Source: a virus (lineage: Duplodnaviria; Heunggongvirae; Uroviricota; Caudoviricetes). From it: a DNA stretch of 5,204 bases. Position 1 is the stretch's first letter; each line of letters opens with the position of its first letter. Below, in pieces: positions 1,447 through 1,719 of the stretch. The translations under genes were made by a program, and so were the position numbers. The notes beneath the pieces are model-generated. The model worked only from the letters and a program-made list of their open reading frames with translations. It made no database searches and was not told the origin of the DNA. Location of the stretch: IMG/VR virus record IMGVR_UViG_2541047428_000017. One strand, given 5' to 3'.

Positions 1447-1486
1447 GATTGCGGAGTTAATCATGCGTCGTTATTATTCAGCAATC

Positions 1487-1562
1487 GGCCCTTTAGCTCA
1501 GCGGTGAGAGCGAGCGACTCATAATCGCCAGGTCGCTGGTTCAAATCCAGCAAGGGCCACCA
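1487..1562 (+). tRNA. ileZ: tRNA with anticodon CAU, tRNA-Ile2 (lysidine) type or tRNA-Met; resembles the phage ileZ class
   Basis: Hand-folded cloverleaf: 7-bp acceptor stem GGCCCTT/AAGGGCC, U8-A9, D stem GCTC/GAGC with GG in the loop, anticodon loop CTCATAA, 5-nt variable loop, T stem GCTGG/CCAGC with TTCAAAT loop, discriminator A, encoded CCA. From memory it resembles E. coli ileX. Ile2 versus Met cannot be settled by eye. Confidence 0.85.
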
Positions 1563-1563
1563 A

Positions 1564-1625
1564 CCGCCACTAGCTCATCAGGAAAGAACGTCACCCTGTG
1601 CGAGATTCGGAGTCCCCGGTGGCGG
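1564..1625 (+). other. degenerate tRNA-like remnant (62 nt)
   Basis: CCGCCAC (1564-1570) pairs perfectly with GTGGCGG (1619-1625) like an acceptor stem and is followed by TA-GCTC as at tRNA positions 8-13, but no anticodon or T arm can be folded. Confidence 0.35.
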
Positions 1626-1642
1626 TCCATTATCGGTATTCT

Positions 1643-1719
1643 GCGTTGTTAGCTCAGCCGGACAGAGCAATTGCCTTCTAAGCAATCGGTCACTGGTTCG
1701 AATCCAGTACAACGCACCA
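1643..1719 (+). tRNA. tRNA-Arg (anticodon UCU, decodes AGA)
   Basis: Hand-folded cloverleaf: acceptor GCGTTGT/ACAACGC, D stem GCTC/GAGC, anticodon stem ATTGC/GCAAT with loop CTTCTAA, T stem ACTGG/CCAGT with TTCGAAT loop, discriminator A, encoded CCA. Confidence 0.88.

Follow-up and report, generated by a model that had tools for sequence, protein, structure and literature searches.

Between the two intact tRNA genes of the 5,204-nucleotide stretch of Caudoviricetes DNA analysed here (IMG/VR record IMGVR_UViG_2541047428_000017, hereafter the window) lies an element which, judged from its sequence, is an unannotated tRNA pseudogene, one more case within the well-known phage tRNA cluster. The reading which we favour, at a probability of roughly 85%, is that this relic descends from the middle tRNA of a cluster carried by lambdoid prophages, that it suffered a 12-nt deletion, and that it is now a passive passenger. 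Its value lies in the annotation and evolution of phage-borne tRNAs, and existing ideas are not overturned by it. We use the names ileZ, argN and argO for the tRNAs of the cluster, the middle one being called argN in phage 933W. The coordinates of the features are collected in Table 1.

Table 1. Features of the tRNA cluster in the window and of the middle slot in related loci
Feature	Position	Strand	Basis or remarks
Candidate sigma-70 promoter of the tRNA cluster	1449–1477	+	TTGCGG (1449–1454), 17-nt spacer, TATTAT (1472–1477)
Intact upstream tRNA, anticodon CAT, ileZ type	1487–1562	+	ARAGORN tRNA-Met/Ile2(CAT); Rfam 70.9 bits; PGAP tRNA-Ile
tRNA relic (pseudogene), 62-nt body and encoded TCCA 3' end	1564–1629	+	Alignment to intact middle tRNAs
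Acceptor-stem 5' strand, CCGCCAC	1564–1570	+	C1570 (tRNA position 7); most alleles have T
D-arm remnant, GCTC/ATCAGGAAA/GAAC	1573–1589	+	A1588 in place of G, pair with C1574 broken
Anticodon-stem 5' strand remnant (TCACC) and deletion junction	1591–1597	+	Alignment
Damaged T arm, CGAGA/TTCGGAGT/CCCCG	1601–1618	+	Two mismatched pairs, 1-nt loop insertion
Acceptor-stem 3' strand, GTGGCGG	1619–1625	+	G1619 (position 66); most alleles have A
Intact downstream tRNA-Arg, anticodon TCT, argO type	1643–1719	+	ARAGORN; Rfam 71.4 bits; PGAP
Middle-slot anticodon variation, L006	396–472		About 180 E. coli genomes
Middle-slot anticodon variation, L007	395–471		As above
Middle-slot anticodon variation, L029			As above
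Class B in L008 and L009	424–523		Interval of ~100 nt between both annotated tRNAs

Homology to the middle tRNA

The earlier note had stated that the clusters of Stx phages carry three tRNAs, and this is seen in the Stx2a phages PA21 and Stx2_EH2246, which possess Met/Ile-CAT, a 77-nt Arg-TCG and Arg-TCT tRNAs at the same site. Over the whole cluster these phages are ~85% identical to the window and 19 nt longer. Alignment against such clusters, as the note had proposed, revealed the relic to be colinear with the middle tRNA of PA21 and EH2246 along its full length, except for a 12-nt gap over the anticodon loop. Its position, too, is that of the middle tRNA: PA21, EH2246, SHP24 and others have theirs in the same interval, between the ileZ-type and argO-type genes on the downstream side of the methylase gene.

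For global alignments of the 66-nt element, z was derived from 1000 shuffles and identity was calculated over retained positions. The closest alleles are those of L007 [95%, 61/64, z = 13.5] and L006 [94%, 61/65, z = 14.1], followed by the Arg(UCG) alleles of L005 and L032 [88%, z = 12.5–12.6] and of PA21 [85%, z = 11.3]; against the middle-slot alleles, none of the 1000 shuffles attained the observed score. The window's own ileZ [74%, z = 1.2] and argO [70%, z = 1.8] align far less convincingly. Since z is 11–14 for middle-slot alleles and 1.2–1.8 for the two neighbours, the relic is a homolog of the middle slot specifically and does not merely have a generic likeness to tRNAs. The suggestion that it might be a decayed middle tRNA is supported by these scores, by the full-length alignment with its single gap and by the shared position, and on this comparative basis we have shown positions 1564–1629 to be a decayed copy of that gene.

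That the element might instead be a chance inverted repeat, or the remnant of an attachment site (a tRNA 3' fragment duplicated at integration), and not a decayed gene at all, is scarcely credible. Repeats of such geometry are indeed common, the window having 27 perfect 7-bp inverted repeats with loops of 30–80 nt where shuffled sequences have 14.8 +/- 5.2, and the 7-bp stem by itself is statistically unremarkable, not beyond chance. Both halves of a tRNA are present, though, in order and at the position of the middle tRNA, with 85–95% identity and the z-scores given above. An attachment-site remnant would hold the 3' part only, and was rejected on the presence of both 5' and 3' halves. The feature is thus real because of its homology and synteny, and not because of its stem.

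Structure and lesions of the relic

The perfect 7-bp pairing of CCGCCAC with GTGGCGG to which the earlier note had drawn attention was confirmed directly (1564–1570 with 1619–1625). It reaches 8 bp with A1563–T1626, and TCCA occupies 1626–1629; the relic therewith possesses a 7-bp acceptor stem with discriminator base and CCA. Compared with most alleles this stem displays a two-sided change, from T7–A66 to C7–G66 (C1570 and G1619). A single nucleotide lies between the CCA end of ileZ and the start of the relic. The tRNA-like beginning of the interior, TA-GCTC, was found as described at 1571–1576. The D arm has three of its four stem pairs left, C1574.A1588 being mismatched, and the GG of its loop (G18 G19) is kept.

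The anticodon and T arms had been described as unable to form, and this was upheld. No anticodon stem with a 7-nt loop is present in the relic: relative to the intact alleles 12 nt have gone, and with them the anticodon loop and the 3' side of its stem. In the T stem two of five pairs, A1603.C1616 and A1605.C1614, are mismatched, the latter replacing the conserved G53–C61, and the T loop (TTCGGAGT) has 8 nt, with one G more than the canonical 7 nt. Relative to the middle tRNA of the Stx2a phages the substitutions are T7->C, G24->A, G51->A, G53->A, T63->C and A66->G, of which G24->A accounts for the broken D-stem pair, while the variable loop and TCCA have been kept.

Because of the flanking CT dinucleotide microhomology the deletion can be placed in three equivalent ways. 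A single event of 12 nt, flanked by CT and spanning the anticodon hairpin, took away the loop together with the stem's 3' strand; that a CT repeat and a hairpin coincide at this point suggests replication slippage. The T-loop insertion, the loss of the G53–C61 and 51–63 pairs and that of one D-stem pair are additional lesions. As it has no anticodon loop the relic presumably cannot decode.

RNA gene finders and fold statistics

ARAGORN, run in default and in relaxed (-ps) mode, called no tRNA at the relic; its default calls were the CAT and TCT tRNAs on either side. The relaxed mode, of the pseudogene-sensitive kind which the note had recommended, does rescue two milder decayed middle alleles (L113 and L070). 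The Rfam tRNA model RF00005 (gathering threshold 29 bits) gave no match to the relic at E<=10, whether the whole window was searched or, under laxer filter settings, an 86-nt slice. Nor did any Rfam family match the + strand of 1564–1625 at E<=10 in the whole window and the slice; as the similarity to a tRNA of homologous clusters is strong, neither of the two outcomes which the note would have taken as a refutation was observed. SMAD5-AS1_3 and rli47 were considered and rejected, their weak Rfam matches being meaningless and far under threshold, and an open reading frame on the minus strand (1578–1727) was rejected on anatomy. Among the genome matches listed PGAP annotates nothing at the relic, the adjacent tRNA-Ile being the only feature under the match.

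The minimum-energy fold of the relic, at -20.5 kcal/mol, is no more stable than those of shuffled sequences (z = -0.89). Fold stability was accordingly discarded as a sign of structure, both for the relic and for the class B segments described below, neither being significant.

Variation of the middle slot

An anchored pattern scan of viral contigs yielded at least 120 loci, which together with loci fetched earlier and with L006 and L007, added by hand, brought the collection to 130. Among these 130 loci there are at least 61 distinct middle segments. They include many intact Arg(UCG) alleles, one UCU allele (L029), the UUU alleles of L006 and L007, an 80-nt state which we call class B, and the deletion of the window type. 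To these are added L113 and L070, called by ARAGORN in relaxed mode only, and L107, which has a broken anticodon loop. Rfam tRNA scores for middle alleles descend through 55.9, 54.8, 43.1, 42.9, 37.0 and 22.2 bits to no match, against 71–72.5 bits for ileZ and 62–71 bits for argO.

In the 83 loci with a full-length 77-nt middle allele the mean pairwise divergence, with anchor positions left out, reaches 7.7% in the middle tRNA, as against 0.4% in ileZ and 1.5% in argO, and the same loci contain 35 distinct middle alleles versus 4 of ileZ and 15 of argO. The middle slot evolves 5–19 times faster than its neighbours. By these measures it is much less constrained than ileZ and argO, and the relic appears at the far end of a spectrum of decay.

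Most alleles of the middle slot read UCG as their anticodon; L029 has UCU, and L006 and L007 combine UUU with C33 (PGAP tRNA-Lys). The tRNA set of phage TL-2011c has been reported as Met-Pro-Arg (PMC7366253). The slot appears to shift its anticodon as well as to decay. Weaker constraint, changes of anticodon and several independent decays together suggest that the ileZ and argO types are needed far more than the middle tRNA, be it by the phage or by the host.

Class B (CCGCCATTAGCTTATCAGGAAGAGCAGACGACACGATAACAGGGTTGTTGGTGCGGGGGCGGGTCCCCGATGGCGG followed by TCCA) is the most common non-tRNA state of the slot, occurring in 31 of the 130 loci (for example L008, L009, L017, L023 and L028), and is missed by PGAP, ARAGORN and Rfam. 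It is predicted to fold as a cloverleaf with a mutated T loop and, where an anticodon arm would be, a 9-bp helix capped by a triloop; the stability of this fold does not reach significance (z = -1.29). The middle slot of L105 is a recombinant with a 5' part of the window type, a class B centre and a T arm of the intact type, and in L039 a deletion joins the 3' end of class B straight to argO. These two loci indicate that recombination and deletion act inside the small interval between ileZ and argO.

Genomic context and distribution

A lambdoid prophage of E. coli O157:H7 PV15-279 matches the window at 99.9% identity; for the tRNA region, identity is 100% with EDL933 and with numerous other strains. 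The genes follow one another in the order DUF968, RusA, DUF1133, a hypothetical protein, DNA methyltransferase, tRNA-Ile, the unannotated gap, tRNA-Arg, carbohydrate esterase, holin and lysozyme. Four SNPs distinguish the window from PV15-279 (2005, 2290, 3829 and 5186), and at 243, just past the hypothetical ORF of 198 nt (41–238), the window has one T more. An A run that is 1 nt shorter in the window (A3, within GGAAAGCCCC at 1067–1070) divides the DNA methyltransferase ORF in two (389–1111 and 1090–1446); PV15-279 has A4 there and an intact methyltransferase CDS of 1059 nt. Either the frameshift is genuine or the homopolymer was misread in sequencing. Downstream of the cluster there is a match to STnc100 (175 bits, 1829–2037, + strand), which ends 1 nt from a convergent match to the anti-sRNA AgvB (2039–2098, - strand), their terminators standing back to back. 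The AgvB match, at 56.6 bits, is just over the gathering score of 56, and the AsxR model reaches 46.8 bits, which is under threshold.

Of 5,426 complete E. coli genomes about 391, O157:H7, O111 and O121 among them, carry the relic allele at 100% identity, and 15 records of Stx2c-converting phages have it as well. Stx2c phages and roughly 7% of the complete genomes of E. coli thus harbour the prophage module, and where it bears the relic it gives two of the three rare-codon tRNAs supplied by Stx2a phages, the third being the unannotated pseudogene. Stx subtypes are known to differ in the set of tRNAs that precedes stx (PMC7366253, Zuppi 2020); no description of the relic was found in the literature searched.

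In 12 of 13 haplotypes with flanks 25–50% different the relic has the same sequence, in a comparison in which the search pattern fixed 25 of 67 relic positions. Among haplotypes bearing it (L134 and L151, for example), differences affect 20–44 of the 82 upstream positions, ~55 of the 109 downstream ones and as many as 6 of the 77 in argO. Relic and ileZ move among haplotypes as one block, which implies that recombination has its breakpoints immediately 5' of ileZ and within the spacer that precedes argO. The relic would then spread among prophages with ileZ as a recombination block, and most likely survives as a passenger, flanked by two tRNAs which are intact and strongly conserved. Its identity in flank-divergent haplotypes might be held against a pseudogene; recent origin and recombination explain it equally well. 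Invariance was rejected as a sign of selection on account of the single origin, of recombination through the near-invariant ileZ and of the positions fixed by the pattern.

The same invariance could be cited for a regulatory role. Small-RNA sponges derived from tRNA spacers exist in E. coli, and the fragment of ~66–80 nt between the tRNAs might act after processing as a regulatory RNA, for instance as such a sponge, in a locus which encodes AgvB; the AgvB match and STnc100 both lie within 500 nt downstream. We regard this as very improbable: there is neither an Rfam match nor significant structure, and the constancy of the relic across divergent haplotypes is explained by recent spread and recombination.

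Transcription of the cluster

A motif of the form TTGNNN/17 nt/TATTAT stands upstream of ileZ in about 115 loci with unrelated contexts, such as the end of a methylase gene, a terminator or other sequence, and in most loci a hairpin with a T-run follows argO, which is weak in the window. In a consensus scan of the window the candidate promoter scored below threshold, and the terminator-like site downstream of argO was likewise not called. Conservation of the motif across contexts, together with the hairpin and T-run after argO, suggests that the tRNA cluster is probably a transcription unit of its own with a dedicated putative promoter. The relic is then probably co-transcribed with ileZ and argO from this conserved candidate promoter just upstream of ileZ.

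Acceptor stem and persistence of the element

RNase P separates tRNAs in some polycistronic E. coli tRNA operons. The relic might be kept as a processing handle, its acceptor-like stem and NCCA still being cut by RNase P, which would free the 3' end of ileZ and separate the tRNAs. A perfect stem of 7–8 bp followed by TCCA, the two-sided change at pair 7–66, and a spacer of only 1 nt after ileZ are in keeping with this, as is the predicted fold, where a CGG/CCG hairpin of only 3 bp is stacked against the acceptor's 3' strand. In addition, three independent states which the RNA finders do not detect (the window type, class B and L007) all retain acceptor stem and CCA. We nevertheless consider such a role, which corresponds to the processing or structural element named by the note as its alternative, unlikely. 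An acceptor-stem mismatch or a G.U pair occurs in 17 of 61 middle alleles, including that of L018, which has the same deletion as the window and a C.A mismatch; the T arm, which RNase P normally recognises, is damaged in the relic; and the predicted fold, as noted, is no more stable than shuffled sequence. Covariation of the acceptor stem was rejected as a sign of selection, one pair only (7–66) having changed on both sides across alleles and mismatches being present in many of them. At this pair a C.A intermediate is found in L018, L006 and L105.

The middle element has also never been cleanly excised in the viral contigs. Spacings of 1–86 nt between the ileZ and argO anchors, searched with exact anchors (window 1540–1562 and 1650–1669), gave 0 matches in the 2.9 million viral contigs of IMG/VR, and the window type, with a spacing of 87 nt, is the shortest state in that scan. 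That the element is never wholly lost among clusters with these anchors agrees with a processing handle and counts to that extent against a pseudogene, as do the perfect acceptor stem attained through a two-sided change and the intact TCCA, which would also fit selection for RNase P cleavage. The lack of clean excisions is a weak argument, however, given the exact anchors and the rarity of precise deletions of ~80 nt. If the relic is a pseudogene, as we favour, its perfect acceptor stem and TCCA would be inherited, with no sign of present function.

One may go further and propose that the relic, and likewise the widespread class B, are retained as non-decoding tRNA-like modules which direct RNase P or release a regulatory spacer RNA. 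We think this distinctly improbable. If true, it would explain why the slot is repeatedly mutated yet never excised, and acceptor stem and CCA would still mature the adjacent ileZ and argO.

Comparison with related tRNAs and tRNA pseudogenes

With the Arg(UCG) middle tRNA of the Stx2a phages PA21 and Stx2_EH2246 the relic shares acceptor stem, D arm, variable loop, T arm and TCCA, at 85–88% identity. It differs in the absence of the anticodon loop (12 nt), in the additional base of the T loop, in the loss of two pairs from the T stem and of one from the D stem, and in a spacer after ileZ that is 8 nt shorter. Intact Arg(UCG) alleles score ~55 bits with the tRNA model, whereas the relic has no score.

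Its nearest relatives, at 94–95%, are the alleles of L006 (strain E2) and L007 (strain 2011C_4037), which ARAGORN and PGAP read as Lys(UUU). Common to all three are C7, the sequence of the D loop, the A51.C63 mismatch and the 1-nt spacer after ileZ; G66 is common to the relic and L007. Unlike the relic, both possess a 7-nt anticodon loop, CCTTTAA, with the unusual C33, and a normal T loop of 7 nt. L006 scores 37 bits and is annotated by PGAP, while L007 has a 1-nt deletion of its own in the D stem and is unannotated. The ancestral anticodon of the relic may have been UCG or UUU: these nearest relatives read UUU, yet the junction is best accounted for by a single 12-nt deletion from an Arg(UCG) allele like that of L005, and recombinant alleles such as L105 exist.

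Compared with tRNA pseudogenes of bacteria and phages in general, the relic displays the same homology to a functional tRNA, disabling lesions and residence in a slot with an elevated substitution rate. Nothing essential sets it apart, other than that its acceptor stem and CCA are unusually clean and that it is flanked by two intact tRNAs in the same orientation.
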